From an uncultured Methanosarcinales archaeon (GTDB lineage Archaea; Nanobdellota; Nanobdellia; Woesearchaeales; CAYSVS01): DNA of 35,030 nt. Below, one piece after another: positions 10,913 through 31,687 of this stretch (its first letter is position 1; each line of letters starts with the position of its first letter). A program made the position numbers and the translations under genes. The notes beneath the pieces are model-generated. The model saw only the letters and a program-made list of their open reading frames with translations. It was not told the origin of the DNA and did not search any database. Location of the stretch: positions 1-35,030 of the forward strand of contig CAYSVS010000009.1 in the NCBI GenBank assembly GCA_964434475.1. Reading direction: 5' to 3'.

Positions 10913-13900
10913 TTAAGAGTATTTTGTTTTACAATTTATTTTTTGGTTTATGAATTCTTTTAGTTTACTTTCATCACTTCCTTTTGTGAACTCTTTCTCA
11001 GTTCCTTCTTCTATTGATATTTTTATGCTGTATCCGTATGATTTTATTGATGCATAAATCTCTTCTGCAAGATCTGTCTTGAAATCAGCACAAGTTTTTG
11101 GATTTTTAACGTTTAGTACTTGGATGATTGCATTATTGAAAGATCCTGTTACTTCATCATCATTTGTTTTAAAATTTTTTGAACTAAAATCCCACCAATA
11201 TTTTATTGTACCTTCTGGTATAATATCATACCAACTAGTTCTTAAAACATCAACTGTTATCTTTTTTGTTCTTCCTGATGTCGCTTCTTGCGCTTGCTGC
11301 TGTTCTTCAGCTTCTTCCTGTTCTTGAAATTGTTCACAAGGGTCATCACTGCATCCATATGTCTTTTCTCCTTCTGAATCTGTTATACAGCAATATTCTT
11401 TACCCTCTCCATCGCATCCATTTCCTCCCAATTGTTCTGTTTTGCCAGATGCGCATACGCAAGGGTTGCTTAGTTCTTCGCCAATGCTGCATTTCTCAGT
11501 CATATGGCATTTTCCGTCGTAACAATAATGTCCTCTTGTATTGTCGCCGCAATTTATGCTTGTTCCGCCGCAGATGCATGTTTGATGTAAATAAGTGCTG
11601 TCGCTTGGGCATGAATCTGTTTCAGGAGAAACTTTGGGTCGTATGCCTATCTTGATAGGAATGTCTTTCTGCCAAAGTAATTGGTCATTCCTTATCTGGT
11701 CTGCTGCTGTGCTATCTATGCAATTATCTGTTCCGTCTAATGCATGCCTTAACTCAAGATGTATTTTCATCTCTTTTTCCTGCTCTCCTGGTTTTGAAGG
11801 TAAAGCAACAACATTGTATGTCAATTGTTTTGCATATTCTCTTTTATTGTTCTTTACAATGTATGGCATCTGCATAGTGTTTAACTTGAATTTTATTCCG
11901 TTGCTTTCTATTATTGCGCCAGTGATATTTTTTGCATAGCCATTGCCTATCTTAATCTGATCATATTTTCCGTTAACATTGTATGTTGTTATTTTTTGAT
12001 CATTGTTTGTATCAAGCAATGTAAATTCAAACTGCACTGTATTTTGGTTGTTGTGGCTTATCAGTTCATAGCTTAATTCTTTTTGCCAGCCTTCTGGAGC
12101 AACCTGTTGCTGGAAAGATACGCCTGTTGCTCCTGTCAATTGTAGATTATCGTCTATTACAATATCATAATTTTTTGTTCCGTTGTGTTTTATCTTGAAC
12201 ACTAATGGTGAGCCTATTTTGCTTCCTGTTGAAGTTTTTTTCTCTATCCATAGGCATTGTGTCTTATCTCCTTTAACATAAATGTCGCCATTGAATTTTA
12301 ATATGTCTCCTGGATAGTATTCTGCTTTTTCTTTTGATATAGGTTCGTTGATATTTACGAAGTGTGCGCTGCCTCTTGCATCCCATAATAATTCTGTACC
12401 TTCGCAGACAAACCTTCCTGCTAAAGGGTCAAACCTGCATGTTGCAATATCTCTTGCTGTCTTGTCTTCTATAGGAAAATACCAGACTCCATCCTTATGA
12501 CCTTCTGGCAGGCATTGTTCTGCAACCTTTTTATTGTTGATATGCAACTTTACTCTTACGTGGCTGTACCTGTTGCTGCTTTCTACAATCTTAGATGTAC
12601 TTTGGTCTTCAAAATCTCCTTGGCTTAGTCTTCTGCCTATAGCCAATGGCTCTGTCATTGTTTCTTGTGTCCAGCAATCGCATCCCTGATATGGATGTGT
12701 TTCTCCAGACATAAGGCTTTTTTCACAGCTTAAGCCTTGTTCCATGGCTGTATTATCGTCTGGACAAACAAGGTCAACACTATAACCGTCAACATCACAA
12801 CCTGGAACTATATTCCATGTTGCTCTGTATTCGTACATAGCCTTATCGTTGTATGGAGTATAGCCAAGGTATTCTCTCCATGCAGGATAGCCTCCAACAA
12901 CTGTGTTGAATGTACTTGAATACGAGCCATCTATTATACTTTCAAAATCAAGACCCCAGTCTCCTGTTAATGATCCTAGACAAATCTTACGCATTATACC
13001 TTGTGTTCCTCCAGCAAGATAGTTGTCAAGAGCAACATTTCCATATTCTTTCTGCAGTTCTTCTGCACTTTCACCTAGACTTTCAAACATAGAAGTTATG
13101 GTAAGCTTAGCTCCATCAAAACCTCCTGCACCTATGCTGCTTGCGCCGTCTTCAGCAGTACAGTCTTCTGTAAAATAGCTTATCACTTGCCATAAAGCGC
13201 TGCACATATAATTATTGAACATTTCTTTGCAAATGCCTGTGTTTGCTCTTCCACTTGTCTTTACCTGTAAAAAGCAGTTATGCAATCCTTGCATTATGTT
13301 CTTTAATGTTTTTAATCTTGTATAGATTCCAGATACACACATGCATTGGAATGTTGATGTGTGCTGCTGCGGAGTAAGCATGTGCAGGTTTTCTCTATAT
13401 AATGCATTGTCTTGGCCAAAGCACGCTGGTTGATCCCTACCTTCATAATATCTGTTTTCGTTATAGCATGTTAATCCTATCTTGTCTTCTCTATAACTAT
13501 ATTTTTCGTTTGGCGCTGCTTCCTGTATATATTTACCTTCAGATATCATATCTGTGCATTGGCTTAACGCATATGGTAAAGGTTCTTCTTTTAGCTTATA
13601 TGTTGTTTCTCCATCTTTTTTTAGCATCTTTGATTTGATATAGCCAGGAATATTGTCCTCTTCAAGCAATAATGTTGTTCCTATCTTAAGAACTTCTAAT
13701 TGTGCTGGTGCAGACCCTATGGTTCCTCCACCATAAACTTTTCTTAAGAGATATTTATTGTTTCCAATGCTTTTTTCGTATACATAATGAGCTCCGTCAA
13801 ATTCATAATGGCTGTTGAAGTTTATTTTCTCGCTTCCTTCTGGAGGCTGAGGAACTAAATTAATTATTAATCCTCTTGTACTTATCTTTTCGTTGTTTAT

Positions 13901-16696
13901 ACAAGCGTGAGATTCTTTTATGGCTTGGTTAACCTCTTCAGGAGATGCTTCTTCAGTCCATTTTGCAGGTGTTTTGTGACAAAGGAATCTGTCTGCCGCC
14001 CATCTGAAAGTTTCATGCGCTTTTCTTTCTATTTCCCATGCAGCTGCGCATGCACTGCATTTTTCATCTAAATCTTTGTCGCTTAGATCATCTTGTAGAT
14101 CCTCGTCACCTTCATTCTTTTTGTGTCCAGGCTTAGGGCATTTTGTTTCTGGTGTTAAGGATTCCATCCTGCATGTTACTTTCCTATAGGTTTTTGCTCC
14201 TATCTTTGCGATCCATGCTCCGAGTGTTGCTACTCCTAAAATTTTCAGTGCAGACTCTATTTTTGGCAGAATCTTGTCAAGCTTTTCTATTGTTTGATTT
14301 GTAGTTTTAATACCGCCTTCCAAAAGCCATTCTGGTAAAACTTTTCTTGGATCTATTTTGGTATCCATAGTATATGCTATGTCCATACATTTCTTCATAC
14401 CTCTTGTTTCGCCGTTCTCTTTAAAATCAACATATACTATATACGGAAATATCATCTCATTGCCTAACAGCATATCTTTTAGTTTTTTGTCTCCTTCACT
14501 TATTTCTGTGCTGTCAAGCCTATAGCGTATGAACCATTTTGTCTTGTCTGGATTTGATTCTATTATTTCCGGAGAACCAGGCAATATCTTGCAGCTTAGG
14601 TTGTATCTCTTGTCTTTTTCTATATCTGTTGCACTGCATCTTTTATCAAGCCTTATGTCTGTTATTTGATAGTCTGTTGCACTGCCGAAGTATGAAAGAT
14701 TAAGAAGGAATTGTATGTGCTCTGTGCCTTGTTCTATCCTTTCTGGATTGAGCAAAGTAGGAGCCTGGTATTTTGCCAAAGGTATAATGTCAAAAGCCAT
14801 CTGTCCTGCCCAGCACGTTCCTATTCTGAAATTTAAAGATTTTTTTTGTGATTTTAAGCCTGCTTTATCTATGGCGACAAGGTATAGGTTAACAGCAAAC
14901 TCTTCATCTCTTATTTCGTTTCTGGTATCTTCTTCTCTTGCTATATCTACTCTGTCGGGTGTGGTAGGAAGAAAAGGTTTGTTGCTGAAATCTTGAGCAT
15001 ATTTTTCTATATTGATACCTTCTATCTTAAAATATCCTGATTCATCTGAAGATACTTCAGTAATGGATGATGTTTTGCCTTTCCTGTAAAGTTTTACTTG
15101 TATACTAGGATCAGTATATCCTTCGATAATTAGGTCTTTGCCTATGGTTCCTTCATATATGAAATATTCACCTGATGCTGCTTCTGATGGTTGTATGTTT
15201 GTAATGTCAGGAGCTGTTGTATCTTTTATTATTGTGTATTGTTTACTGTCTTCATTGCCTGCTTTATCCACAGCTTTTATTGTTATGTAATTTATGCCCT
15301 CTTCTATAGGTAAGTTTAATTCAAAATCACCTTGAGCGGGAATAGGTGCGTATTGGTATGATATTTTACATTTTTCTGGATAGTATCTTTTATCCTGCTC
15401 CTGTTCAACATCTCCTGGTTCTGTTGTGTAAGTATAAGGGTTTGACAGTGGACCTTCATTGCAATATCTGTCAACCATAGAGATTTGGTATTTGTATGTC
15501 TTGCCTGAATTTATATATCTGTCAACAAACTCAGGAGCGCTTTTTACTATGCCAAAGAATTTATCGTTTCTGTATGTTTTATAATAGTTAAAATCAGGGT
15601 GTTTGCTTTCGTTCCAGATTATTTTTATAGCTCTCTTGGAATCAGAATGTTTTCTAACTCCTGTGATAACTCTGGAAGCTTCATCAACAGTTTGTTGTAC
15701 ATTTGAGTATATTATAGATACATTTTCATTTACATAGCCTTTAACTTCTATAGAACCAACTTGTTCTACTGTTTCTGGTATGTCTGTTTCTATATCCAGG
15801 ATGGGTTTGGTATAATCTGTTTTTGTATTGTATATGTATTCTTTCTCTGTTCCGTGCTTTGTTGTAACAGTGAATTTAAGTTTATTATTGCCCTGTTCAA
15901 GCTCTACATTAGAGAAGCTAAACTTTCCTGATGCGCTTGTGCTTGATGGAGTGTATCGCCTGTTGTTTGGATCATCATTCACAATAAGTTCAACGTATGC
16001 ATAAGCAGGTGTTTTTCCTCTGATATTCATATATTTTTCATTATAGAATTCAGGTATTTCTAATTCAAGTGTAGCCGCACTATCGCCTAGTGTTTTGAAT
16101 CCGCCTTTGTTGGAATCAGTGTATTCTGTTATTATTTGAAAAAAATACTCTGTTCCAGGATCAAGTCCAATAATATTTATTTCATGATCTTGTGTGCTTG
16201 AATCTCCTACTTCAATAACTTCAAGATTGTTCTTATCTGCACTGTAATGTATCTCTGTTATTGTATCTATGTTTGTTTTCCAGGTTATTACAGCAGAATC
16301 GTCTGTTGTATTTGCTGAAATGTTTATGAATTCTAACTTAGGATATGTCTTTAATGTATAGAAATTATTGCTGTTGTTATCTATTAGAGTATAGCTTGAT
16401 GAATTTGTGGATTGAACCTGAAACTTATATTCTGTATCAGATTCAAGGTTTGAAAGTTTAATTTTATGTTCTGTTACTTTATTGTTGTCTGTTTTGTATT
16501 GGTCTAGCTCCTCTATCCCATAATCTACCCTGCTTGTTGAACCTGTTGATGTCTCCCATTTTATCTCTGCTGTTTCATGATCTATCACATTTGCATTTAT
16601 ATTTTCTATGCTTAGTTGTTCCGCAGATATTATAGGCAGAGCTAAGATTAAGCAGATTACAAATATACTGAATTGTTGTAATATTGTCTTTTTCAT
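10913..16696 (-). CDS. Giant secreted Cys-rich protein with Fn3/Ig-like domains (1927 aa)
   Basis: Sec signal; two tandem Fn3-like repeats (A.I.W.T...Y...H.I...L...TEY.FQ); Ig-like AVDKAGN/AIDKAG motifs; central hydrophobic helix; Cys clusters. Confidence 0.88.
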   Translation of the reverse strand: MKKTILQQFSIFVICLILALPIISAEQLSIENINANVIDHETAEIKWETSTGSTSRVDYGIEELDQYKTDNNKVTEHKIKLSNLESDTEYKFQVQSTNSSSYTLIDNNSNNFYTLKTYPKLEFINISANTTDDSAVITWKTNIDTITEIHYSADKNNLEVIEVGDSSTQDHEINIIGLDPGTEYFFQIITEYTDSNKGGFKTLGDSAATLELEIPEFYNEKYMNIRGKTPAYAYVELIVNDDPNNRRYTPSSTSASGKFSFSNVELEQGNNKLKFTVTTKHGTEKEYIYNTKTDYTKPILDIETDIPETVEQVGSIEVKGYVNENVSIIYSNVQQTVDEASRVITGVRKHSDSKRAIKIIWNESKHPDFNYYKTYRNDKFFGIVKSAPEFVDRYINSGKTYKYQISMVDRYCNEGPLSNPYTYTTEPGDVEQEQDKRYYPEKCKISYQYAPIPAQGDFELNLPIEEGINYITIKAVDKAGNEDSKQYTIIKDTTAPDITNIQPSEAASGEYFIYEGTIGKDLIIEGYTDPSIQVKLYRKGKTSSITEVSSDESGYFKIEGINIEKYAQDFSNKPFLPTTPDRVDIAREEDTRNEIRDEEFAVNLYLVAIDKAGLKSQKKSLNFRIGTCWAGQMAFDIIPLAKYQAPTLLNPERIEQGTEHIQFLLNLSYFGSATDYQITDIRLDKRCSATDIEKDKRYNLSCKILPGSPEIIESNPDKTKWFIRYRLDSTEISEGDKKLKDMLLGNEMIFPYIVYVDFKENGETRGMKKCMDIAYTMDTKIDPRKVLPEWLLEGGIKTTNQTIEKLDKILPKIESALKILGVATLGAWIAKIGAKTYRKVTCRMESLTPETKCPKPGHKKNEGDEDLQDDLSDKDLDEKCSACAAAWEIERKAHETFRWAADRFLCHKTPAKWTEEASPEEVNQAIKESHACINNEKISTRGLIINLVPQPPEGSEKINFNSHYEFDGAHYVYEKSIGNNKYLLRKVYGGGTIGSAPAQLEVLKIGTTLLLEEDNIPGYIKSKMLKKDGETTYKLKEEPLPYALSQCTDMISEGKYIQEAAPNEKYSYREDKIGLTCYNENRYYEGRDQPACFGQDNALYRENLHMLTPQQHTSTFQCMCVSGIYTRLKTLKNIMQGLHNCFLQVKTSGRANTGICKEMFNNYMCSALWQVISYFTEDCTAEDGASSIGAGGFDGAKLTITSMFESLGESAEELQKEYGNVALDNYLAGGTQGIMRKICLGSLTGDWGLDFESIIDGSYSSTFNTVVGGYPAWREYLGYTPYNDKAMYEYRATWNIVPGCDVDGYSVDLVCPDDNTAMEQGLSCEKSLMSGETHPYQGCDCWTQETMTEPLAIGRRLSQGDFEDQSTSKIVESSNRYSHVRVKLHINNKKVAEQCLPEGHKDGVWYFPIEDKTARDIATCRFDPLAGRFVCEGTELLWDARGSAHFVNINEPISKEKAEYYPGDILKFNGDIYVKGDKTQCLWIEKKTSTGSKIGSPLVFKIKHNGTKNYDIVIDDNLQLTGATGVSFQQQVAPEGWQKELSYELISHNNQNTVQFEFTLLDTNNDQKITTYNVNGKYDQIKIGNGYAKNITGAIIESNGIKFKLNTMQMPYIVKNNKREYAKQLTYNVVALPSKPGEQEKEMKIHLELRHALDGTDNCIDSTAADQIRNDQLLWQKDIPIKIGIRPKVSPETDSCPSDSTYLHQTCICGGTSINCGDNTRGHYCYDGKCHMTEKCSIGEELSNPCVCASGKTEQLGGNGCDGEGKEYCCITDSEGEKTYGCSDDPCEQFQEQEEAEEQQQAQEATSGRTKKITVDVLRTSWYDIIPEGTIKYWWDFSSKNFKTNDDEVTGSFNNAIIQVLNVKNPKTCADFKTDLAEEIYASIKSYGYSIKISIEEGTEKEFTKGSDESKLKEFINQKINCKTKYS

Positions 16697-18636
16697 CTTT
16701 TAGTCATTATCTCCGGTTCAGGCATCTTTTTTGAATTCTTAGGCAAGTTCATAAAAAACTCTTGCATGTATGGTGTCAAATCCTCGCTGTCAGGAATAGG
16801 TTCTATTGTGCTTACTGTATGGAACTTGATGTTTTCAGCATCCTTGACTCCTGCATTGCTTGGTTTCCATTCGCCGATATAACCTCCACTGAATTCGTCG
16901 TCTTTCATAAGGTATATCTTTAATGAATATGTATAGTCTTTGTCAGCCAATAATGTCATAGGTATAATCTCTTCTGTTTTGTCAGGAGGATAAAATCCGT
17001 ATGTTGTATGCTGCATATTTGGATTGCTTATTATAATTACAGCTGTTTCATCAGAATCTAGGTAAGTTTCTAGATCAGGGTATTCTATGTCGTGTTTGAC
17101 TACGCTATAATTGTATATTTTTTTTATAGGTGTCAAGCCTATTATCTCTGTTTTTCCATCCATAAGGTCTGTATCTATTATTTCTTTTGCTCTCTTATAT
17201 CCAGGAGCTTCAACCTGTATTAATCCGCCGTAGCATAAAGGAAGCATAAGTTCAACACCAGAATATGTTCCGCCGAACAAGTAATCTGTTGTACCTTGAT
17301 ATCCGCATTTGAACTTAAGGCATTCGAAAGACACATTAGCTCCTACCACCATACCTCCTGTAACATTATTCTTTGTCTGTATATTGATGTTCTGCGTTTT
17401 TTCGCTGCAGAACTCTTCTGAATTTGGAGCAGTTTCAAAATCAAAAGATGTTGTTGAAAAAGTCTGCCTATTTGCAATATTATGATTTATGTTGACAGGA
17501 AATGCAAAATTGAAAGTGTATTCTTTGTTATCATCTGTCTCATCATCCTTTAAAGTTACCATAACAGGATATTTCACATCATATGTAAAATGATATATTT
17601 GCATACAAAGCCATGACATATCTATTACATCTTCTACCTCTTGGCCTTGCTGTGTACCTGAAGTCATTATCATGCCGTTGTTAGGCCTTACGTTGAAATT
17701 AAAGTCCCATGAAGGGTCGAATGTTAATGATGCATGCATGTTAAGGTAGGAATCATCGCCTGTAGCATGAAAGATATAATGGTTCTTGACATATTCTTGT
17801 TCTTCAGGGATAGGCAAATAGTTTGTATCAGATATTCTTACCAAAGGTATATTCATCTGCAGCAGTTGTTTTAGCTTATCTTCAACCTTCTTGACAAACC
17901 AAATCCTTGGACTACATCTTATCTCAAAATTAGTATAAGGTATTTCAGGGTCCAGAGCTATCAAATCTATAGTTAGTTGTTCTAGCCAGGATTCTTTGTT
18001 TTCCTGTTCCATTATCTTTCTTGCCAGTTCAAGCACCTTCGATAATCTTATGTTCTTGTTTATGGTAAACCTGTTTATGTTAGATACTGTTGTATTATCT
18101 TTGCTTCTTATCTCTAAAGGCCATAATACATCATATACAACATCATCATAGCTTAGTATGACTTCTGTCTGCATATCATCTAATTGTTTAATGTTGTATT
18201 GATTTTCTAATGCAGTAAAATTATTTACGCATAGTTTTAGCTTTGTGTTCATGCTGTTCTCTAATTCGTTCTTGATAAATTCATTGCTAGGTATCCTGTT
18301 CTGGCCATTGTGCCACCAGTAAGGGATTTTTAATGTATCAAATTCAGGATGTACTGATATATAGCTGGTAGGGTCTTTTGATATCAAAAGAGGAAACTCC
18401 ATGTAGCCTCCGTTATGACCTAGAATCGCTAAATCTTTATCGCTGATTTGTTTAATGCATGTTTCTACATATCGATAGACAGGGATAATCTCTTGCGGCA
18501 ACTGAGTTCTTGCTTTTTCTTTCAGTTGTGATGTTGATTGTTGGATGAACAGCACTATAGCTACGCCTAGAAGCATAAGTATACCTATGATTATGAAAAT
18601 AGTTATCTGTCCCCTTTTTTTTAGTGTAATGCTCAT
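16693..18636 (-). CDS. Large protein with class III (prepilin-like) signal peptide; probable start 18636
   Basis: KKRG|QITIFIIIGILMLLGVAIVLFI; paralog of 24648-26756. Confidence 0.85.
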   Translation of the reverse strand: MSITLKKRGQITIFIIIGILMLLGVAIVLFIQQSTSQLKEKARTQLPQEIIPVYRYVETCIKQISDKDLAILGHNGGYMEFPLLISKDPTSYISVHPEFDTLKIPYWWHNGQNRIPSNEFIKNELENSMNTKLKLCVNNFTALENQYNIKQLDDMQTEVILSYDDVVYDVLWPLEIRSKDNTTVSNINRFTINKNIRLSKVLELARKIMEQENKESWLEQLTIDLIALDPEIPYTNFEIRCSPRIWFVKKVEDKLKQLLQMNIPLVRISDTNYLPIPEEQEYVKNHYIFHATGDDSYLNMHASLTFDPSWDFNFNVRPNNGMIMTSGTQQGQEVEDVIDMSWLCMQIYHFTYDVKYPVMVTLKDDETDDNKEYTFNFAFPVNINHNIANRQTFSTTSFDFETAPNSEEFCSEKTQNINIQTKNNVTGGMVVGANVSFECLKFKCGYQGTTDYLFGGTYSGVELMLPLCYGGLIQVEAPGYKRAKEIIDTDLMDGKTEIIGLTPIKKIYNYSVVKHDIEYPDLETYLDSDETAVIIISNPNMQHTTYGFYPPDKTEEIIPMTLLADKDYTYSLKIYLMKDDEFSGGYIGEWKPSNAGVKDAENIKFHTVSTIEPIPDSEDLTPYMQEFFMNLPKNSKKMPEPEIMTKR

Positions 18637-18637
18637 T

Positions 18638-19414
18638 TTATTTGATTTTTTTAACAACCTCTATTATGTAAAATTTGTTGAATGTCAAAAATAATAGTAT
18701 TACTATAGATGATGTAATTGTATATGCTTTGTTGTTGAATATGAATAGTTTTGCGATAATACTTAATGCAAATAAGATTATGCTTAAGCTTAAGTATGGC
18801 AAGTAAAGTTTTTTTGCTTTCTTGAAAACTATGTTTGCTGTTTCCTCTATGTATCTCTTTTTTGTAAGAAATTTTATGTATAATATAGATATAATGTTCA
18901 ATAGATATATCATTATAGGTATTATTACGAATATGTAAACAGCACTGATCACTAGGATTCCGCCAGGATAATATCGTAACTTGTCTACTGATGTAGACAC
19001 CAAGCTTAAGAGTATATTAAGTATAAAAAATACAAATATTCCTATGAAAAACAGAATAAAGTTAAGTATATAGAACTTTTTTATGAATATTTTGTCAAAC
19101 TTTTTGTTCATCAATCTTGTCCATATAATGCCTTTAATTATCGACCAATTCAGTATGGATATAAGCAACGCTATAAGTATATATATATAGAACTTTGCCA
19201 TGAATGTGTTGATTATGTTGTTACCTATGCTAGAGTTTATTGCATCAGATACAGAAGGAAGTTTTTCTATCTCTGTTGACATAATAAAACTTAAGATATT
19301 CAGTATTCCTATAAACAATATTATATGTAGTAAATCAAGTCCAAATACTATCAATCCTTTTTTTTTCATTTCCTGTAATGCTTTTTTTAATGTCTTTTTC
19401 ATCTTGTTCACCAA
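18638..19414 (-). CDS. Polytopic membrane protein
   Basis: About six hydrophobic segments. Confidence 0.8.
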   Translation of the reverse strand: MVNKMKKTLKKALQEMKKKGLIVFGLDLLHIILFIGILNILSFIMSTEIEKLPSVSDAINSSIGNNIINTFMAKFYIYILIALLISILNWSIIKGIIWTRLMNKKFDKIFIKKFYILNFILFFIGIFVFFILNILLSLVSTSVDKLRYYPGGILVISAVYIFVIIPIMIYLLNIISILYIKFLTKKRYIEETANIVFKKAKKLYLPYLSLSIILFALSIIAKLFIFNNKAYTITSSIVILLFLTFNKFYIIEVVKKIK

Positions 19415-21534: not shown

Positions 21535-24500
21535 TTAGTCTTCACCTATTGCGCTGCATGCGTCATAGCTTTCCGGTATGTCTAATGTGATGCCGTTTCT
21601 TAAGCTTTTTATCCTGTCTATCTGTTGTGTTATGTATCCTATCTTTTTTGTTAATTTAAATATCTTGCATGGACCTGTATCTGAGCCTTTGCAGAAGTAT
21701 TCTGAGCTTCCAAATGCTAATGAAACAGGATCGCTTAACAAGTCTTTAATCTCTCCAGAGAATCTCTTCCAGATATGTACAAAAGGTATTACCTGAAAAG
21801 CTTCTCCATATATATATGCGCATTGCAAATATTGAAACTGATCCTGACAGGCTGATACTGGCATTCCATAGGGTACTTTGTTCTGAAGGCAGTCAATATA
21901 CATGCAATTGATCTGTCTGTATTTTTTTAGATTTCTTGAAATTCCTGCAGGACATAGTGTTAATATGCTTAATACTAAGCTGTCTTCTGGATTTTTCGGC
22001 CACATCCCTACATCGCTGAATCCCCTGTCTTCCAGGGTTTTCTGTAATTTAATTCCAAAGAATCCTTCTTCTGCAACACCTCTTACTTCATTAACATATT
22101 CAAATGCTTGTTTTTCTTTGCCATCCTTCATCAAATTATTATATTTGTCCCAATTAACCTGTCCTATTGTTTCGTGATAGCTTATTCCTAACAATCTTTC
22201 ACTTAGATGCGTGTTTGCTGAAGAACAGCTGCCCCATTCGCAGAATTTACTTAATACTTTGTTTACACTTGCAAACATGCTTGGTGTTTCAGGAGGATTA
22301 TACAATGCACTTATACCTTGTTTGAATATAGCGAAAACCAGTTCTATCGTAGTTACCACTTGATATATCTGGCAGCCTTTGTCAGCTATTTCTAGTAATT
22401 TTTCCATCCATTTAAGTTTGTCTGCAAGTTTGTACAAGCCATTGTCTTTTGCTTCTTCTATCAAGCTTTGTGTTCCACTATCTATAGTACCTAAAGGCAT
22501 ATTATACAGAGGAATTTCTATTCCTATTGTTTCGTATTCTTTGTTTGTTACATATCTTTGGTTTACTTCTGTAATAAGGCCAAATGTGCAGTTAAGCTTG
22601 AATCTTGTGACATCTTCTGCGATGCCTTGCCTTCTTATATTTATTTTCACTAAAGTATCATTTCCGCCTGCATATACTAAGCTTGGATTATTGCCGCTTG
22701 CAAAGTAATCCATGTCTCCTTCACATCCCTCTAATGACGCTTCTAATATCTTTATGTTCGATGTGCTAGGAGTGAATCCTAAGTTTGTATAGACTTGCAT
22801 GTTTGTCAATGGAATGGTTTGCTTATCTAATTTTGAAGGCAATAATCTTTTGTTGCTTATGGACCAATAATTAGGGGTTCCGTCCTGTGATTCCAGTATT
22901 CTTATCTCTTTTTCATATTCTATTGAATTATCTACTATATCTTTGAATGTTAATTTTAGGTTAGCTTTATTGTCCTGTCCTAAGCTTGATAATGGCCCAA
23001 TTTCTTCCCAGATACAGTAATGTAGTGAAGAATTAACTTGTTCTGAACATTTGGCAGCGATAGGTTCTTTTTTACCTGTTATTTCACTAAAGTTTCCATA
23101 AGCCGAAACAGTTGTATCGTCTTCAATATATGCTTCGACTGTCATATGTTCATTTGCCTGAAAATATTGTTTTTGTCCTTGCTCTCCTATAGCATAAATA
23201 TTTGTTGCGGTTATTATGGGATCCTTATTATCTACTCTTAATATTGCATCTTGTTTTCCTTTAATTATATTGCCAACATCATCTTTTGTTGCGTCTGTTA
23301 AATAAATCTTGTACATGTCAAGGTGCTTTGCACTCTCGCTGACATTAGCTCCGCCGTAACATTCCCATAAAGAGCCTTTTTGTATGCAGTCATTAGCTCT
23401 TGCAAAATTTTGTTCTTCTAATCCTGGTATTTCTGAAAGATCAAATACAACGCCTTTCCCTGGATAATCTAGGTTAAAACCTGATCCTGCTTCTTTCATA
23501 GTAGCTAAGAACTTATTCTTGCCTGGTTTGATGTAACAATATTTTTCATCGCATTTGTCTGTTCCTATTGTATTTGTTTCTGGTGCTTGGCTGTCTACAC
23601 TAAATGTGAATTTCTTTGATGTGTCTAATTTATTGCCTTTATCATCTTTAGCTATTATCTTTATTGTGGGCTGTATCTGTGTTTTTTCTCCTGGGTTGAT
23701 AGAAATATCTTCCCAGATAAACCTGTATGTTTTGCCACTTTTTTGATATTTGTTAGGTTGGTAGTTTGTTCCAGCATAAGCTGCGTTCAGTTCGCTTAGG
23801 TCTGCCTGTACAGAATCAGTATCTATTTCTTCATTATCCTCTATATCTGCAATCATATTGACTTTTGTTCCAGACCCTGAAATGTAATCTACTTCAGCAT
23901 CGCCTATCTTGAACTCAAGATTATCTAGTTTAGGTGCAGAAAGATCTACTTTGATATCTTCTGTAGTTTTTGTTGCTATATGGCCTTGATTGTCTACAGC
24001 TATTATGCTTATAGTCTGCTTGCCTTCTTTTGTTAAAGGAATTTCTGCATCCTCTTGATACCAGCATTTGTCGAACTCTGCTTCAACTTCTTTTCCGTTG
24101 ATTTCTATGCTTTTTATGCCGCTGCATTTATTGAGGCATAGTGTACCTTCGCAAGCTTTTTCGTGCACTATATAACTAAGTTTTGCTACATCGCCTTCTT
24201 GTACTGGTTGCTGTTGTATATCTATCTCAGGAGCTAACCCATCTACATAATATGAATCAAATTCTTCTGTTAGCTGTGTTCCTTCTGAATCATACAGCTT
24301 TACTTTTAATCCATATTTGTTTGCAGGCATAAAAACATTTTTTGAATGTTCACATTTGTAAAAATCATCATCTAGCTTTGTGCATTGCTTATTGAACGGA
24401 ACTATCATTCCGTTTGCATCTAGTTTAACCATGTTTGGAGTTATTGTCGAGTCTTCAGCATATATCCTTGCTTCAACTATAATAGATATGACATCATCTG

Positions 24501-24651
24501 ATGAGATCATATTTGGAATATTATTTTCTCCTTTGATCTCCATGTTTCTGATAACTCCTGTTACTGAATAGACGTTTGCTGTGTAGATAGGCAGAGCTAT
24601 GATTAAGCAGATCATCAATATGCTTATTTCTTTTAATATTATTTTTTTCAT
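21535..24651 (-). CDS. Large secreted Cys-rich protein with Ig-like repeats (1038 aa)
   Basis: Sec signal; repeated VD..AP and A.D..GN motifs; helical Cys-rich C-terminus related to the 1927-aa protein. Confidence 0.87.
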   Translation of the reverse strand: MKKIILKEISILMICLIIALPIYTANVYSVTGVIRNMEIKGENNIPNMISSDDVISIIVEARIYAEDSTITPNMVKLDANGMIVPFNKQCTKLDDDFYKCEHSKNVFMPANKYGLKVKLYDSEGTQLTEEFDSYYVDGLAPEIDIQQQPVQEGDVAKLSYIVHEKACEGTLCLNKCSGIKSIEINGKEVEAEFDKCWYQEDAEIPLTKEGKQTISIIAVDNQGHIATKTTEDIKVDLSAPKLDNLEFKIGDAEVDYISGSGTKVNMIADIEDNEEIDTDSVQADLSELNAAYAGTNYQPNKYQKSGKTYRFIWEDISINPGEKTQIQPTIKIIAKDDKGNKLDTSKKFTFSVDSQAPETNTIGTDKCDEKYCYIKPGKNKFLATMKEAGSGFNLDYPGKGVVFDLSEIPGLEEQNFARANDCIQKGSLWECYGGANVSESAKHLDMYKIYLTDATKDDVGNIIKGKQDAILRVDNKDPIITATNIYAIGEQGQKQYFQANEHMTVEAYIEDDTTVSAYGNFSEITGKKEPIAAKCSEQVNSSLHYCIWEEIGPLSSLGQDNKANLKLTFKDIVDNSIEYEKEIRILESQDGTPNYWSISNKRLLPSKLDKQTIPLTNMQVYTNLGFTPSTSNIKILEASLEGCEGDMDYFASGNNPSLVYAGGNDTLVKINIRRQGIAEDVTRFKLNCTFGLITEVNQRYVTNKEYETIGIEIPLYNMPLGTIDSGTQSLIEEAKDNGLYKLADKLKWMEKLLEIADKGCQIYQVVTTIELVFAIFKQGISALYNPPETPSMFASVNKVLSKFCEWGSCSSANTHLSERLLGISYHETIGQVNWDKYNNLMKDGKEKQAFEYVNEVRGVAEEGFFGIKLQKTLEDRGFSDVGMWPKNPEDSLVLSILTLCPAGISRNLKKYRQINCMYIDCLQNKVPYGMPVSACQDQFQYLQCAYIYGEAFQVIPFVHIWKRFSGEIKDLLSDPVSLAFGSSEYFCKGSDTGPCKIFKLTKKIGYITQQIDRIKSLRNGITLDIPESYDACSAIGED

Positions 24652-26756
24652 CTTCTAAAGTTCGGATGCAATTCTTCTCCGTATATTTTTGAGTATTTTG
24701 GAATCTTGCCTATCTCTCCCATATCTTCTATTACTCTTGATTCTACGGGTATTGAATACACGTCTGGATTAATAGCATAAAATGTAACTTTCTCGTTATT
24801 GTATATGTTGTCTTCTGTAATTGTTATGTTTTGTGAATATCCTCCGCTAGTGTATGATTCTACTGAAATCTCTTTTTCAGGCGCCCAATAGCATTCTTTT
24901 ATCAAGCCGCCAAGCATCTTTATGCATCTTTCTTGCGGTAATATCTTGAATTCTTTGTCATTTATTACATTGATTTCAATATCGTATTCACCTGGAGCGA
25001 ATTTATCTATTTTTGTTTCTTCCTGTTTCAATGATGCGAATACTTCATGGTCCTGCTGTCCTTGTTCAGGTATCCTTGTTAATATGATTGTTGCACTTTC
25101 TTCTGGGTCAAGTTCGACAGCTTCTTTGTTAAAAGTCCATCTTGGATGCAGTTGTTTTTTCATCAAGCTTATTTCTATTTCCTTGAATGGATAAAGTTCA
25201 ACTTCTATATTTTGCTCTTCGCCAAGTCTTGTTGTAAGGAATTTTGATTCTCTTAGATAATCCTGGTTGTCAAAGCTAATTATGCCGTTTATTCCGACAG
25301 GAAACTTTGTCTCTAGGATTCCTTTGTTGTTTGTTTTCCCTATAAAGCACGATTCGTCCCCTATGCTGTAGCTGATCTTTAAATTAGGTATAGGTTCTTG
25401 TGTTATCTTATCTGTTGTTTTGACAGTAATATTGCCCGAGTTTCTTTTGTCTATATTGCACATCATACTTCCTTGCGGAAGTGCAAAACTTTCAATAGGT
25501 TCGAAAGTCTCGTTTATAGCTTCGTTGTTTCTTATATTTGCTTCTAAGGCTATCCAGAAAGTGTAGCCTTTATTGTTGAATGCATAAGGATCCACTATGC
25601 TTATCAGCACAGGATATGATATGTCATAGATTGTTTCGTATCTTTGAATGCCGAAGTTAAGCAGAGGTTCATATATTCCTTCTGGGCCTATCATGCCTGA
25701 TTCTGAATTAGTGTCAAAATATATGGGCCATTCAGAGAAATAATTGAAGTTTACGCCTAATGTTGAAAATCCTGTAATAGGCAGTACCATCGAATCATAG
25801 ATTCCTTGTGCAGTGCTGCTGAATTCGTTTTCCTCTACTATCACTCTTTCATAATTCAAGCTGTCCTTAATCTTGAAATAAGGTGTAAAAGACTGCAGCA
25901 TAAGCTGTATGTTATCTTTCACTTTATCTTCCTGCCAGTATACACCCGAAGTTTCGAAATCTGTAGTTGACATAGGAGGTATCTTTAGTTCGTCTATTCC
26001 TGAAAATATTGTCAATAAATCTAATGTTGAACTTTCAAGGAAAGAATATTCTGATTCAAATTGGGTTATGTTGTATGCTTTTTCGTATATGTTTTTGAAA
26101 TCAAATGAAATTTTCTTATAGAATTTATCTGTTTTCGCTCTGTTATTTCCTTTAACAATATCTGTTTCCATATATATCAATATCCTTACATCTTCTTCTG
26201 TTATTGTTGTGAGTGTGGTTATATTATCATCAGCAACAACAGTGAATTCCTTGAAATCGTCAAACCCTCTGAAACATTTTTTCAGATTGGATTCAATGTA
26301 TTTGTCTATCTGTGTTTCTATAGCATATTCTTCACTTATATATTCTGTATTTTGTCCTCTGTATAATGGAGGTCTCATCGATGCAAATTCGCAGTAGCCT
26401 GTGCAGTCGTTGTCTCCTTTTAGATAATACCAATAGGCTGGTTTTATATCTGAATTAGGCAGCAGTTCAAGAGTATTGCTGCTTGTAGGCATATCTTGTA
26501 TTATCTTGATATTATTTTCGTATATATATCCGCCTTTGTTTCCTAATTCTACAAAAGCATCGATTGCTGTTTGTTCTATGCATTGTTCTATAAAATTAGA
26601 TACAGGTTGTGCATAATTAGGAACATCCTCTATTTCTGGTTCTTTTATCTCTAGTTTTCTCTCTTCAACGCTTGATTGTATATATACAACTATCGCAGCT
26701 GAGAATAGCAGAATGATTCCTATTATTATGAAAATAGTTATTTGTGCTTTTTTCAT
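24648..26756 (-). CDS. Large protein with class III (prepilin-like) signal peptide; probable start 26756
   Basis: MKKA|QITIFIIIGIILLFSAAIVVYI; ATGA overlap with the upstream stop. Confidence 0.87.
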   Translation of the reverse strand: MKKAQITIFIIIGIILLFSAAIVVYIQSSVEERKLEIKEPEIEDVPNYAQPVSNFIEQCIEQTAIDAFVELGNKGGYIYENNIKIIQDMPTSSNTLELLPNSDIKPAYWYYLKGDNDCTGYCEFASMRPPLYRGQNTEYISEEYAIETQIDKYIESNLKKCFRGFDDFKEFTVVADDNITTLTTITEEDVRILIYMETDIVKGNNRAKTDKFYKKISFDFKNIYEKAYNITQFESEYSFLESSTLDLLTIFSGIDELKIPPMSTTDFETSGVYWQEDKVKDNIQLMLQSFTPYFKIKDSLNYERVIVEENEFSSTAQGIYDSMVLPITGFSTLGVNFNYFSEWPIYFDTNSESGMIGPEGIYEPLLNFGIQRYETIYDISYPVLISIVDPYAFNNKGYTFWIALEANIRNNEAINETFEPIESFALPQGSMMCNIDKRNSGNITVKTTDKITQEPIPNLKISYSIGDESCFIGKTNNKGILETKFPVGINGIISFDNQDYLRESKFLTTRLGEEQNIEVELYPFKEIEISLMKKQLHPRWTFNKEAVELDPEESATIILTRIPEQGQQDHEVFASLKQEETKIDKFAPGEYDIEINVINDKEFKILPQERCIKMLGGLIKECYWAPEKEISVESYTSGGYSQNITITEDNIYNNEKVTFYAINPDVYSIPVESRVIEDMGEIGKIPKYSKIYGEELHPNFRR

Positions 26757-27487
26757 TTTGTTGCTCGTATGCATGTGAATTTGTAAAATGTTGAATCTAT
26801 ATTTTCACATATTATAGGCAGTGCTTCTTTATACATAGCTGCTAAAGTAAGGAAACAGATGTCTTTTTCGCTTCCTATTTTTGATTCACATATGTCTTTT
26901 GCCTGGGAATATGTCTTTAGCCTGAGTTGGTCAATCATCTTGTCTGTCTCTTGTGTTATTTTTGTATAATGGTATGCTGCAAATATTATAGTTACTATCA
27001 CAGCAAGGCTCATCAACACAGTCAATGTTCTTATGAACAGTTTATCGTGTTTGATATCGTGTTTGCCGTGCATAAAAGCATCTTTGATCTCTATGAGATA
27101 CCATATTATCAACGCATCTATGAGGATTATGAATCCGAAAGCTCCTAGAATTATGTCATGGATGATATTGAAGCCTTCTGTTTGTATGTACATGCTTATT
27201 ATGCTGTTGAAAATTTCAAACCCAAACCACGCTATAGCAAGATACCAGATAGATTTTCCTCTTGTCATCAATCCGTGGATTATAGAGAATATTATAGCGA
27301 TAAAAAGTATGTTGATGATTACCGCTATCCCTCCTTCCAGTACATATCCGAAAAACATTACTGTCTGGTTGGTAACAGTAAACATAAGATAAACAAGTGC
27401 AAGAAATATTGTGTAGATAGTAAGGACTTTTATTCCGTTGTACTTACTAATAGATTCACTACTACTTTTACCCCTCTTTTTAACCAT
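26753..27487 (-). CDS. Polytopic membrane protein with Cys-rich C-terminal domain
   Basis: About five TM segments, then DICESKIGSEKDICF...ICENIDSTFYKFTCI. Confidence 0.82.
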   Translation of the reverse strand: MVKKRGKSSSESISKYNGIKVLTIYTIFLALVYLMFTVTNQTVMFFGYVLEGGIAVIINILFIAIIFSIIHGLMTRGKSIWYLAIAWFGFEIFNSIISMYIQTEGFNIIHDIILGAFGFIILIDALIIWYLIEIKDAFMHGKHDIKHDKLFIRTLTVLMSLAVIVTIIFAAYHYTKITQETDKMIDQLRLKTYSQAKDICESKIGSEKDICFLTLAAMYKEALPIICENIDSTFYKFTCIRATK

Positions 27488-27513: not shown

Positions 27514-27521
27514 TATATAAA
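27514..27521 (-). promoter_or_regulatory. Candidate TATA box for the surface-protein operon
   Basis: Minus-strand GAAACC-TTTATATA, about 26 nt upstream of the ATG at 27487. Confidence 0.5.
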
Positions 27522-30818: not shown

Positions 30819-30940
30819 TTTAACTAAGGTTTAGGAATTATGGTGTTTAGAATAATTGTATTTCAAGATGATTTTATATGAAATAAAAATGTTTATATAG
30901 GATTTATTTTATATTACCTGTAATGATAAGATTAAGTGTG

Positions 30941-31687
30941 ATGCTTAGAAAGAGATCTCAGATAACTGCTTTCATCATCGTAGGATTGGTGATTGTTTTA
31001 TTGTTCGGATTATTGATGTATATCCAATCTGCAAGAGAGGAATATCATATTAAAGAAAGCATATTCGACACTTCTGAGATTGAGTATTACATACAGTTGA
31101 GCATAGATCAGGCAGCAGAGGATAGTTTGCTGTTTACTGGATTGATGGGCGGCAATTATGATTTGAATAGGACTTATGATACTGAAACTTATTTTGTCAA
31201 TTATCTATATGATGGACAAGTCAGCTATCTGCCTTCTTTAGATAGGATTGAGGAAGATATGGAAGCTTTTGTAGATTATGTCTTGCCTTTTTACATCAAT
31301 CTGGCTGTTTTTGAGGAAAAAGGGTATGATATTAAGTTAGGCAATGTGAGCACTGATGTTGTTATTACTCAAAATGCGGTTGATTTTATAGTAGATTATC
31401 CTATATCTGTTGAGATGGGAGATAGAAAGAAAACTCTTGAAAAATTTAAGACAACATTTGATGTAAGATTGGGCTATATTTATCATGTTGCAGAGAATAT
31501 AGTAAACCAACAGTTTGAAGATCCAGGATGGATCGATGTTACTTATCTTGATGGACTTAAGGCTATGCAGAGTGATCTATCTTATCTATCAGAAGATACT
31601 GTATTATTTGCTTTGCAGGATAAGCTGTCTGAAAAGCCATTTTATTTTATATTTGTATTGAAACTAGGTGATAAGATTGAAGCATAG
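30941..31687 (+). CDS. Short member of the class III signal (prepilin-like) family; start 30923 or 30941
   Basis: RKRS|QITAFIIVGLVIVLLFGLLMYI; shares G..GG and downstream motifs with the two long paralogs. Confidence 0.83.
   Translation: MLRKRSQITAFIIVGLVIVLLFGLLMYIQSAREEYHIKESIFDTSEIEYYIQLSIDQAAEDSLLFTGLMGGNYDLNRTYDTETYFVNYLYDGQVSYLPSLDRIEEDMEAFVDYVLPFYINLAVFEEKGYDIKLGNVSTDVVITQNAVDFIVDYPISVEMGDRKKTLEKFKTTFDVRLGYIYHVAENIVNQQFEDPGWIDVTYLDGLKAMQSDLSYLSEDTVLFALQDKLSEKPFYFIFVLKLGDKIEA

Follow-up and report, generated by a model that had tools for sequence, protein, structure and literature searches.

How DPANN archaea hold partner cells is largely unknown, and we know of no cultured member of the Woesearchaeota. 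The window analyzed here, a stretch of 35,030 nucleotides from an archaeon of this kind, carries seven co-oriented genes (g1–g7; positions 10913–27487, minus strand) and raises the question of what such a set of genes builds at the cell surface. The original prediction was a translationally coupled, disulfide-rich extracellular complex on a type IV filament-like scaffold, plausibly for adhesion to or penetration of a host cell. The answer toward which we lean, with modest confidence, is a pair of paralogous surface assemblies, g2–g3 and g6–g7, each made of an anchor and its cargo and probably serving cell contact.

Gene order and conservation of the operon

The junctions between the seven open reading frames are either ATGA overlaps or gaps of 0–5 nt (Table 1). 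The overlaps lie at 26753–56, 24648–51, and 16693–96. At the g3/g4 junction, the TAA stop codon is followed immediately by ATG, whereas 5 nt separate g4 from the ATG of g5 at 19402 and 1 nt separates g5 from the ATG of g6 at 18636. The TATA-like box TTTATATA upstream of g1 is a candidate promoter, and the operon transcript would then be nearly leaderless. Among sequencing runs, a single DNA run and no RNA run was listed as containing this stretch. Located 3' of g7 is a 105-aa ORF with a TATA-like box of its own.

Table 1. Features of the operon and of a neighboring gene pair
Feature	Positions	Strand	Description
TATA-like box TTTATATA	27514–27521	−	candidate promoter element read from sequence, ~30 nt 5' of g1 ATG
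g1	26753–27487	−	244-aa polytopic membrane protein with C-terminal 4-Cys region
g2	24648–26756	−	pilin-like modular anchor, 702 aa from ATG 26756; longest ORF 24648–26774 (708 aa)
g3	21535–24651	−	1038-aa Sec-type exoprotein, 26 Cys
g4	19408–21534	−	708-aa Sec-type secreted protein, 11 Cys
g5	18638–19414	−	258-aa polytopic membrane protein, 5–7 hydrophobic segments, no Cys
g6	16693–18636	−	second pilin-like anchor, 647 aa from ATG 18636; longest ORF from TTG 18657 (654 aa)
g7	10913–16696	−	1927-aa Sec-type exoprotein, 49 Cys
Small pilin-like paralog	30923–31687	+	254 aa; overlaps start of the 541-aa protein gene; outside operon
Secreted protein	31668–33293	+	541 aa; partner of the 254-aa pilin-like paralog; outside operon

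Inspection of the translations assigns Sec-type N termini to g3, g4, and g7 and a polytopic topology to g1 and g5; the N termini of g2 and g6 read K-K/R-A/G-Q, followed by a hydrophobic stretch. All seven proteins are members of unnamed families. Scans against Pfam, NCBIfam, and PHROGs gave fn3/Ig-type matches in g7 only and otherwise noise, and the absence of recognizable enzyme motifs noted at the outset extends to enzyme domains, none of which was found by Pfam or NCBIfam in any protein of this copy.

Chance alone does not account for the arrangement, since relatives show the gene order as well. Of 67 cases in which at least 2.5 kb lies downstream of a g2-like gene, 52 have a g3-like gene next; for g6-like genes and a following g7-like gene, the count is 15 of 22. 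In 22 of 43 cases a g6-like gene lies within 9 kb of a g2-like gene, mostly at a distance of 5.2–7.1 kb, and the genes in between encode a variable Sec-type protein and a protein with 5–7 transmembrane segments. The position of g5 is kept just ahead of g6-like genes. At 13 of 79 loci, all in closer relatives, a tblastn match to the g1 family sits directly 5' of the g2-like gene. With its ATGA overlaps, short gaps, exported or membrane-bound products, and recurring order, the locus is thus a real translationally coupled operon, as had been proposed, and the co-occurrence of its genes across relatives is borne out.

Among Woesearchaeota-type DPANN archaea, the operon characterizes a single order and is found in most of its sampled genomes. 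The g3 family is present in 127 of the 151 genomes sampled from that order (E ≤ 1e-10) and in 194 of 301 genomes of a phylum-level sample; strong matches are confined to the order, and only weak ones were obtained elsewhere in the phylum. The conserved core of g7 has 557 representatives at the 50%-identity level. Searches of the literature on Woesearchaeota and DPANN pilins, surface proteins, adhesins, and lytic transglycosylases returned no description of the operon, and the available portions of PMC13705601 and PMC11606122 do not mention it. Near-universal presence in the order beside housekeeping genes would also suit a structural role in the envelope.

Proposed pilin-like anchors and their large partners

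Class III signals, as formulated in the FlaFind rule, consist of basic residues, a small residue at −1, and a hydrophobic stretch of about 20 residues. The motif [KR][GAS]xx plus a hydrophobic stretch is present in 108 of 120 g2-family proteins, and the prepilin-like call originally made for the two proteins of ~650–700 aa stands as regards this signal motif. Among the 108, the −1 residue is Gly in 76, Ala in 21, and Ser in 11, and the +1 residue is Gln in 106; the other 12 members of the family mostly read K[QN]GQVTIF. An acidic residue at position +5 of the mature protein is typical of polymerizing pilin subunits. Both g2 and g6 read Q-I-T-I-F, placing Phe, not Glu, at +5, and they are therefore expected to act as single anchors or caps rather than as polymerizing shaft subunits. 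In the same genome, Glu+5 is found in three small pilins (Q-x-x-M-E) and is absent from nine proteins of the QIT[IL]F type. Curated pilin and class III signal models did not match whole g2 or g6 at E ≤ 0.1, nor did they match the first 45–50 residues at E ≤ 10; such short models are insensitive.

The AlphaFold2 (AF2) model of g2 (pLDDT 84) has an N-terminal helix, then α/β domains, and then C-terminal β-sandwiches of the transthyretin/CnaB type. The predicted helix spans residues 5–40 and leads into a low-confidence linker (pLDDT 61–64 over residues 31–50). Fold matches are restricted to residues 442–680, the C-terminal β-sandwiches; residues ~50–415 matched no pilin fold, although this domain was barely probed, the β-sandwiches having filled the fold lists. 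The N-terminal module shared by g2 and g6 also occurs in paralogs of 240–345 aa. A search for longer proteins in which a g2-like part is fused to other sequence found none, which is weak evidence.

The operon had been described as two membrane/pilin/exoprotein triplets, and this symmetry holds only for the middle member. The two anchors are full-length paralogs (25% identity by BLASTP, E 3e-29). In contrast, g1 and g5 show no detectable relation when their families are compared by hhalign (probability 0.4%), and BLAST similarity between g3 and g7 is limited to their signal peptides. The g3 and g7 families do share one 68-column Cys-rich motif (hhalign probability 97.1%, E 5.6e-11), which corresponds to residues 1102–1169 of g7.

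The two exoproteins differ in layout. An N-terminal Ig-like array in g3 is followed by a helical Cys-rich C-terminal domain (~703–1038), and g7 is made up of an fn3/Ig array (~25–600), a conserved core (~615–1680), and a C-terminal region (~1680–1927). The Pfam matches of g7 are of the fn3/Ig type (fn3, E 2.5e-11; Pur_ac_phosph_N, 1.6e-10; Glucodextran_B, 1.1e-8). When profiles of the three large families were run against PDB sequences, Ig/fn3 matches were confined to the N-terminal arrays and the cores had no match. A protein-atlas search yielded nothing usable for g3, nor for the 248 C-terminal residues of g7, a region (~1680–1927) in which no domain was recognized. The AF2 model of the g7 core (pLDDT 66.8) retrieved generic β-sandwiches at background level, the best being an Ig-like domain of a GH2 enzyme (Z 8.9, rmsd 3.3, 101 residues aligned). 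Two further matches were to HAP2 domain III (Z 7.9 and 7.8), and we do not count them as evidence for a fusogen.

The C-terminal end of g7 homologues is variable. Enzyme domains are found there in 4 of 46 homologues: SLT in three (P0131, P0133, and P0137), one of which also has VanY, and Trypsin_2 in one. DUF2341 is another of these variable domains. A clustering of the C-terminal tails was not clean, since the tails still held core domains. The g7 of this window has no SLT domain (Pfam, E ≤ 0.1). As 42 of the 46 homologues likewise lack an enzyme domain, a wall-cutting role is not general.

Does an anchor hold the exoprotein encoded next to it? For complex prediction we chose g2 (residues 45–708) and the C-terminal domain of g3 (703–1038), because alignments exist for both, whereas the 541-aa partner of the small pilin-like paralog has no relative in the 150 other genomes of the order. 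With alignments built in this analysis, the pair scored 0.71, 0.72, and 0.65, and the best of three controls scored 0.00. Of 157 solved complexes, 116 reach the mark applied to this score, as do 2 of 215 mismatched pairs. Confidence on the g3 side is modest (partner pLDDT 51–65), and at least 60% of contacts agree between runs. The predicted interface joins residues 248–328 and 365–378 of g2 to residues 718–773 and 892–965 of g3, includes the shared Cys-rich motif, and coincides in part with the columns that are most conserved in each family. Together with the conserved gene order, this controlled prediction makes a physical complex plausible. The description of that complex as disulfide-rich has to be toned down: cysteine content is only moderate (Table 1; eight each in g2 and g6), with exactly eight cysteines also encoded by the g6-type genes of relatives.

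The pairing is not limited to the operon. At least six further pairs in the genome place a small QITIF-type gene beside a gene for an exoprotein with a signal peptide, and several of these overlap by 4 nt. In the pair on the plus strand of the window, the family profile of the g2 type matches 30941–31174 and 31241–31519, both within the gene for the 254-aa paralog.

The remaining three proteins are conserved parts, perhaps a linker (g4) and a membrane base (g1 and g5). In g4, a variable N-terminal part precedes a conserved C-terminal domain of ~230 aa, and the invariant residues are G481, C520, Y594, Y651, C655, and C669. Its positional counterparts form one fast-evolving family, of which the copies at loci L034 and L031 are matched by the window copy (E 2.8e-8 and 2.6e-6), and hhalign detected no profile similarity between this family and those of g3 and g7. 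The g1 family (an alignment of 13 members) corresponds to no Pfam or NCBIfam family. None of the 18 members of the g5 family has a Pfam match, and because their alignment contains no invariant residues, g5 is probably structural.

Possible roles of the assemblies

How might these parts work together? In the anchor-plus-cargo reading, the class III signal of g2 and g6 would be cut before the invariant Gln, probably by one of two prepilin-peptidase homologues, and the hydrophobic N-terminal helix would keep each anchor in the membrane, although a place at the tip of a type IV filament is also conceivable. Each anchor gene is coupled in translation to the gene of a large Sec-exported cargo, g3 or g7, which itself lacks an anchor. 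In the g2–g3 pair, the helical Cys-rich domain of the cargo is predicted to clamp onto the middle domain of g2, so that the Ig-like array of g3 would be free to project outward. Docking of g7 on g6 could proceed likewise, via the motif common to g3 and g7, and would leave the fn3/Ig array and the variable C-terminal end of g7 free. The likely job of such assemblies would be contact with the surface of another cell. Because g7 of this copy has no murein-cutting or protease domain, it would bind rather than cut. Host adhesion or penetration stays a proposal, to which the sole pointer is the murein-degrading or protease domains of the 4 g7 homologues described above; this copy has none.

In one alternative, which we consider unlikely, g2 and g6 would be genuine minor pilins: the single type IV machine of the genome would place them at the tip of a pilus made of the small Glu+5 pilins, where they would carry g3 and g7 as tip adhesins. 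As was originally noted, no assembly ATPase, platform protein, or prepilin peptidase is encoded among the window ORFs scanned; a search of the bin found all three elsewhere in the genome. Two Peptidase_A24 homologues lie on contigs other than that of the operon, T2SSE scores above cut-off on contigs C1 and C25, and C1 also has two platform proteins (T2SSF genes) and small pilins adjoining its ATPase locus. These components, the class III motif of the g2 family, and the predicted docking of cargo on anchor would all suit a filament tip, and the missing Glu+5 has a parallel in the tip pseudopilin GspK, which lacks it as well. The ATPase family is present in 151 of 151 genomes of the order, which agrees with a tip complex, but its co-occurrence with the operon therefore cannot discriminate. 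What argues against the tip is that the assembly genes sit on other contigs and are not linked to the operon, that the operon has no set of small minor pilins, and that no similarity to PilY1 or GspK was found in family scans or PDB-sequence profile searches. In addition, the modeled g2 helix appears to join the globular part through the low-confidence linker at residues 31–50 rather than belonging to a packed pilin head. Against the wider idea of a type IV filament as scaffold stand anchors without Glu+5, the absence of a match to curated pilin models, and the lack of linkage to assembly genes.

An S-layer-like or envelope lattice with a housekeeping role, where g2 and g6 would form membrane stalks, as SlaB does in Sulfolobales, and g3 and g7 the canopy outside, as SlaA does, strikes us as distinctly unlikely. 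Its two-component logic of anchor and large protein is the same, the g3 family is widespread in the order, and this genome has a single copy of the operon. The neighbors are housekeeping genes, MetRS here and Pth2- and S6e-like genes in relatives (judged from their N termini). The β-sandwich stalk domains of g2 resemble SlaB (8qox_B; Foldseek E 4.4e-6; Z 9.8, rmsd 2.1, 85 residues aligned), but this is one common β-sandwich among dozens of equal matches, and no S-layer family was matched in Pfam or NCBIfam. Moreover, the anchor would be N-terminal and pilin-like rather than a C-terminal stalk, and the enzyme payloads on some g7 homologues, together with the fast evolution of g4 and of the g7 N terminus, suit an interaction surface better than a lattice.

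It is improbable that the operon is a device for attacking or feeding on bacteria, in which g7, like a polymorphic toxin, would deliver an exchangeable effector at its C terminus and the other genes would position it: a core that is conserved while the C-terminal domains vary (SLT, SLT plus VanY, Trypsin_2, and DUF2341) would fit, as would the murein-directed large proteins proposed for these lineages in the available part of PMC8204110, but enzymes are rare among the homologues, this g7 has none, its last 248 residues gave no lead, and its core fold gave background matches only.

We therefore return to two anchor-plus-cargo assemblies as the preferred reading. The operon, present in most sampled genomes of its order, now has a concrete predicted architecture of pilin-type anchor, docking domain, and free outward end. 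The repeated pairing of a pilin-like gene with an exoprotein gene suggests that giant surface proteins without an anchor are displayed according to a general rule, and if this rule holds, it would help in annotating many hypothetical proteins. Carried to its full extent, the idea would be a general, so far undescribed pilin-adaptor display system of Woesearchaeota, in which every class III-signal protein of the QITIF type would be an adaptor dedicated to one cargo, which would be translated alongside it, exported by Sec, and caught for display on a type IV filament machine. In such a system g2–g3 and g6–g7, with g4 and g5, would be the core host-contact organelle of the order, the end of g7 would be exchangeable and, in some lineages, would cut murein to open bacterial walls, and the strain-specific small pairs would be variable adhesins. 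We regard this generalization as doubtful.

Comparison with known systems

Bacterial minor pilins carry PilY1, and GspK caps the type II pseudopilus. In both the PilY1/minor pilin and the GspK-GspI-GspJ complexes, the filament ends in a large non-pilin protein or a cap that is held by pilin-like proteins, and g2–g3 is similar in silico; unlike these tip complexes, the operon provides one large anchor per cargo, not a set of small minor pilins.

The modular type IV pilins PilB and PilC of Streptococcus sanguinis, as described in the available parts of PMC8179133 and PMC9934059, consist of a pilin-type N-terminal module and extra globular modules that make the filament adhesive. g2 and g6 are built likewise from an N-terminal module and extra domains, but in their case the prediction is that the added domains grip a second, large protein and do not themselves bind a ligand. 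They are also archaeal, lack Glu+5, and are not encoded beside assembly genes, and no sequence or fold similarity to PilB or PilC was found.

An archaeal case is the Sulfolobus bindosome, whose sugar-binding proteins bear a class III signal (PMC3047682, in the part available). There, as would be the case for g2 and g6, a pilin-type signal puts functional surface proteins at the envelope with no pilus shaft. The bindosome proteins, however, are themselves the binders and need a dedicated Bas system, whereas g2 and g6 are predicted adaptors for a Sec-exported protein.

The large extracellular murein-transglycosylase proteins of fam00969, specific to Woesearchaeota and Pacearchaeota according to the available text of PMC8204110, are giant, lineage-specific secreted proteins for which attachment to bacterial walls has been proposed. 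Three g7 homologues carry SLT and in this resemble them, whereas the g7 of this window and most of its homologues do not; the likeness is drawn from the description of the family. That text describes neither the operon nor pilin-like partners nor the docking motif.

Finally, the SlaA/SlaB S-layer of Sulfolobus acidocaldarius (PDB 8qox) also combines a membrane-anchored stalk with a large outer protein, and the β-sandwich domains of the stalk are common to g2. The match is limited to that common β-sandwich, whereas the operon's anchor is N-terminal and pilin-like and its cargo is Cys-rich with variable ends.

Operon layout and kinship among the seven genes

The 1.5-Mb genome that holds this contig (C9) is 97% complete, and the window itself (G+C ~34%) carries archaeal housekeeping genes for L31e, Kae1/TsaD, the Lhr helicase, and MetRS. 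From 10913 to 27487, the minus strand is filled by seven ORFs, g1 (first) to g7 (last). As originally predicted, they are co-oriented and tightly packed, with a TATA candidate at the start; the junctions are ATGA overlaps or gaps of 0-5 nt (see table). The box lies in the 458-nt gap between g1 and the next gene upstream, and the g7 stop is followed by a T-rich stretch and, beyond it, by a small separate gene that has a TATA-like box to itself. Two other ORFs of the window on the same strand deserve mention. One matches ribosomal protein L31e in residues 5-71 only and has a long C-terminal extension. The other is a full-length RelA/SpoT-type protein with HD_4 (E 4.6e-52), RelA_SpoT (E 1.6e-42), TGS, and ACT domains; such long synthetase-hydrolases of (p)ppGpp are seldom found in archaea.

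Features of the operon, its surroundings, and related loci on other contigs of the same genome (anchor and cargo are putative roles)
Feature	Location	Strand	Detail
TATA-like box TTTATATA	window 27514-27521	-	~30 nt before g1 ATG
g1/g2 junction	window 26753-56	-	ATGA overlap
g2/g3 junction	window 24648-51	-	ATGA overlap
g3/g4 junction		-	TAA, ATG immediately after
g4/g5 junction	window 19402 (g5 ATG)	-	5-nt gap
g5/g6 junction	window 18636 (g6 ATG)	-	1-nt gap
g6/g7 junction	window 16693-96	-	ATGA overlap
L31e-matching ORF	window 375-1151	-	258 aa
RelA/SpoT-type gene	window 6708-8615	-	
Anchor-cargo pair	window 30923-33293		pilin-like 254 aa, then 541 aa
Cargo of that pair	window 31668-33293	+	541 aa
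Secreted-looking protein	window 33840-34994	+	384 aa
Anchor-cargo pair	C7		pilin-like 274 aa, then 1063 aa
Anchor-cargo pair	C18		pilin-like 264 aa, then 630 aa
Anchor-cargo pair	C18		pilin-like 240 aa, then 351 aa
Anchor-cargo pair	C18		pilin-like 345 aa, then 1848 aa
Anchor-cargo pair	C6		pilin-like 1016 aa, then 4140 aa
Pair in reversed order	C21		624 aa, then 241 aa
Type IV filament locus	C1 75032-83824	one strand	three small pilin-like genes (132, 135, 154 aa); 869-aa and 309-aa genes with pilin-like N-termini
Type IV filament locus	C1 75032-83824	other strand	201-aa gene, ATPase (498 aa), two platform genes (299, 321 aa)

We hold with moderate confidence that the operon encodes two anchor-plus-cargo surface assemblies, with pilin-type, probably non-polymerising anchors (g2 and g6) carrying large exoproteins (g3 and g7), and that their role is contact with another cell. 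The original prediction had described two triplets, each of a membrane protein, a prepilin-like protein, and an exoprotein, around the secreted protein g4. The kinship results make this only partly right. Paralogy between g2 and g6 extends along the entire protein (25% identity, E 3e-29). By BLAST, g3 and g7 have signal peptides alone in common, but their family profiles share a 68-column Cys-rich motif (g3 881-948, g7 1102-1169; hhalign probability 97.1%, E 5.6e-11). No kinship was found between the membrane proteins g1 and g5 (hhalign 0.4%) or between g4 and either g3 or g7. The genes for g3, g4, g5, and g7 are each single-copy in their own genome.

Conservation in relatives and recurring pairs

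In the protein collection, at least 230 proteins belong to the g2 family; each is unnamed or labelled "hypothetical," and wherever a source is named it is Woesearchaeota or Nanoarchaeota. Scanning species-representative genomes gave 393 confirmed matching stretches, and 79 loci were retained; 28 are titled "uncultured Methanosarcinales archaeon" (TPA assemblies, label as deposited) and the rest Woesearchaeota, Nanoarchaeota, Nanoarchaeia, or archaeon. By tblastn of the seven proteins, these loci contain 85 g2-type and 27 g6-type genes. A g3-like gene follows the g2-type gene in 52 of 67 cases with at least 2.5 kb of DNA downstream, and a g7-like gene follows the g6-type gene in 15 of 22 with at least 1.5 kb. 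A g6-type gene lies within the next 9 kb of a g2-type gene in 22/43 cases with at least 8.5 kb downstream, mostly 5.2-7.1 kb away. At least 8 of the 15 g2-g3 misses belong to a third paralog type, which occupies an additional module of different gene order and has a g3-like gene upstream of it, and all seven g6-g7 misses had just 1.5-3.6 kb of DNA remaining. A g1-like gene stands immediately 5' of the g2-like gene at 13 of the 79 loci.

In the ORF maps, two genes invariably separate the g3-like gene from the g6-like gene, one for a Sec-type protein of 360-920 aa and one for a protein of 250-330 aa with 5-7 TM segments, and start-stop overlaps are kept in relatives. The g4 counterparts by position form one fast-evolving family with a conserved C-terminal domain of ~230 aa, which the g4 of the window joins at E 2.8e-8 and 2.6e-6; the g5 counterparts align along their length with zero invariant residues. 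Of 301 genomes sampled across the phylum, 194 have the g3 family, and within the window's own order it occurs in 127 of 151 genomes (E<=1e-10); these tallies include the unpublished genomes G242, G243, and G355, and no conclusion depends on any one of those. Every strong match falls within that order, and outside it are eight weak matches only (1e-6 to 1e-12), in other orders of the same class. At the 50%-identity level, the core of g7 is represented by 557 sequences at E<=1e-3, of which 178 reach E<=1e-30. Gene order is conserved among these relatives.

Some loci carry additional genes. The third pilin-like paralog, in its differently ordered module, lies upstream of the main cluster at L027, L034, L037, L038, L045, L055, L056, and L076; at L034 and L038 this module runs from a g3-like gene through one or more small genes to the pilin-like gene and a 6-7 TM gene. 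At L022, L075, L077, and L079, small proteins of 130-260 aa with a class III signal are encoded upstream of the cluster by a few genes, adjoining peptidyl-tRNA hydrolase-like and ribosomal protein S6e-like genes (judged from N-termini). These small proteins may be shaft pilins that, in those lineages, are tied to the cluster.

Within the genome itself, the g2 profile finds further proteins through its first ~235 positions. At least six more places have a gene for a protein starting Q-I-T-I-F (QITIF-type, with a class III signal) directly beside one for a protein with an N-terminal signal-like segment, and several of these pairs overlap by 4 nt. The small pairs look strain-specific because no relative of the 541-aa cargo was found among 150 other genomes of the order; g2-g3 and g6-g7 are the conserved ones. 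This cargo and the 384-aa protein near it are both secreted-looking, with alike Gly/Ser/Lys-rich beta-type sequence and a common "DGWK / SGWN" stretch near the N-terminus, and they may be diverged paralogs of strain-specific cargo. The genome has 32 ORFs of at least 900 aa, with signal-bearing giants of 6437, 5092, 5021, 4362, and 4140 aa (82-317 Cys each); the 4140-aa giant follows a QITIF-type pilin-like gene.

Pilin-like anchors and predicted docking

By consensus, g2-family proteins start MxxKKGQITIFIIIG, where the Gln is invariant. Of 120 members, 108 fit the class III signal pattern used here, which follows the FlaFind rule (residue -1: G 76, A 21, S 11; residue +1: Q in 106 of 108). The pilin-like character first proposed for g2 and g6 is supported by this signal; no curated pilin model matches them, isolated N-termini included, and they lack a Glu at +5. 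Twelve proteins of the genome start with the series basic, small, Gln, hydrophobic. Three small ones (132-145 aa) have Glu at +5 in the reading Q-x-x-M-E, and two of these adjoin the ATPase locus; the other nine read Q-I-T-[IL]-F and lack the Glu. In bacterial systems, Glu+5 helps subunits assemble with one another and is missing from the tip pseudopilin GspK. g2 and g6 are therefore expected, by analogy, not to be shaft subunits.

The likeness to GspK also fits a true pilus-tip complex, a reading we consider unlikely. The prepilin peptidase, ATPase, and platform protein, absent from the window according to the original prediction, are all encoded on other contigs: there are two homologues of Peptidase_A24, two platform genes, and T2SSE ATPases, and the type IV filament locus of the genome is on C1. 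Co-occurrence of the operon with the ATPase is uninformative either way because T2SSE-family ATPases are present in 151 of 151 sampled genomes of the order (148 above the Pfam cut-off). The accessible text of a 2026 survey describes archaeal type IV filament systems as widespread, with Asgard and DPANN archaea as exceptions (PMC13705601), a statement about whole systems that is not directly comparable with our single-family count.

The g2 model (pLDDT 84, pTM 0.54) consists of an N-terminal helix (5-40), a low-confidence linker, alpha/beta domains to ~415, and tandem beta-sandwiches (448-680). These C-terminal sandwiches filled the lists of fold matches, which are to transthyretin-like/carboxypeptidase-regulatory and CnaB-type domains (best 5aq0_B, Z 11.6, rmsd 1.7, 81 aligned).

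Because g3 and g7 have only the Cys-rich motif in common and their partners are paralogs, g2 (45-708) was modeled with the C-terminal domain of g3 (703-1038), with family alignments as input. The complex scored 0.71, 0.72, and 0.65, against 0.00 for the best of three controls; 116 of 157 solved complexes attain the same mark, as do 2 of 215 mismatched pairs, counts that are approximate for our own alignments. pLDDT is 51-65 for the partner and 79-84 for the other chain, and at least 60% of contacts agree between runs. The predicted interface joins g2 248-328 and 365-378, outside the ~235 positions common to the small paralogs, with g3 718-773, an internal hydrophobic helix flagged as possible TM in relatives by a simple hydropathy scan, and 892-965, which takes in the common motif. 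Both sides fall on the most conserved columns of their families. The model supports binding of g2 to the g3 C-terminal domain, and by analogy g6 would dock g7. Of the physical complex originally envisaged, the g2-g3 pair passes in silico.

Exoproteins and comparison with known systems

No family in Pfam, NCBIfam, or PHROGs matches g1-g6. The g7 matches are N-terminal only and all Ig-like (fn3 E 2.5e-11, Pur_ac_phosph_N 1.6e-10, Glucodextran_B 1.1e-8), and profile searches against PDB sequences gave Ig/fn3 matches alone. Modeled at middling quality (pLDDT 66.8), the core of g7 shows a 59-residue helix (789-847), a helical Cys-rich middle, and beta-sandwiches, for which fold searches returned background-level beta-sandwich matches alone. 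An envelope or S-layer-like scaffold is in our estimate quite improbable.

The ends of the g7 family vary. Among 46 homologues with Pfam data (22 precomputed, 10 of them re-scanned, and 24 scanned from 125 unscanned full-length representatives), three carry a terminal SLT lytic transglycosylase domain, joined in one of them by VanY/M15; a fourth has a trypsin-like peptidase domain at its end, and one has a DUF2341 domain. The g7 of the window has none of these by Pfam, and its last 248 residues gave no match lead. An attack device with exchangeable effectors, which such ends bring to mind, is very improbable in our judgment.

None of the papers found by our literature searches, partial in their coverage of sources, describes the operon, the family of QITIF anchors, the common docking motif, or the recurring pairs. 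The accessible text of one study describes large murein-transglycosylase proteins that are extracellular, reach 3,000 aa, and are restricted to Woesearchaeota and Pacearchaeota; its authors proposed that they attach to bacterial walls (PMC8204110), and part of the g7 family, matched by description only, probably falls under this account. The general ideas are already known, from modular pilins and tip adhesins to surface proteins with a class III signal and the murein-directed giant proteins of these lineages.
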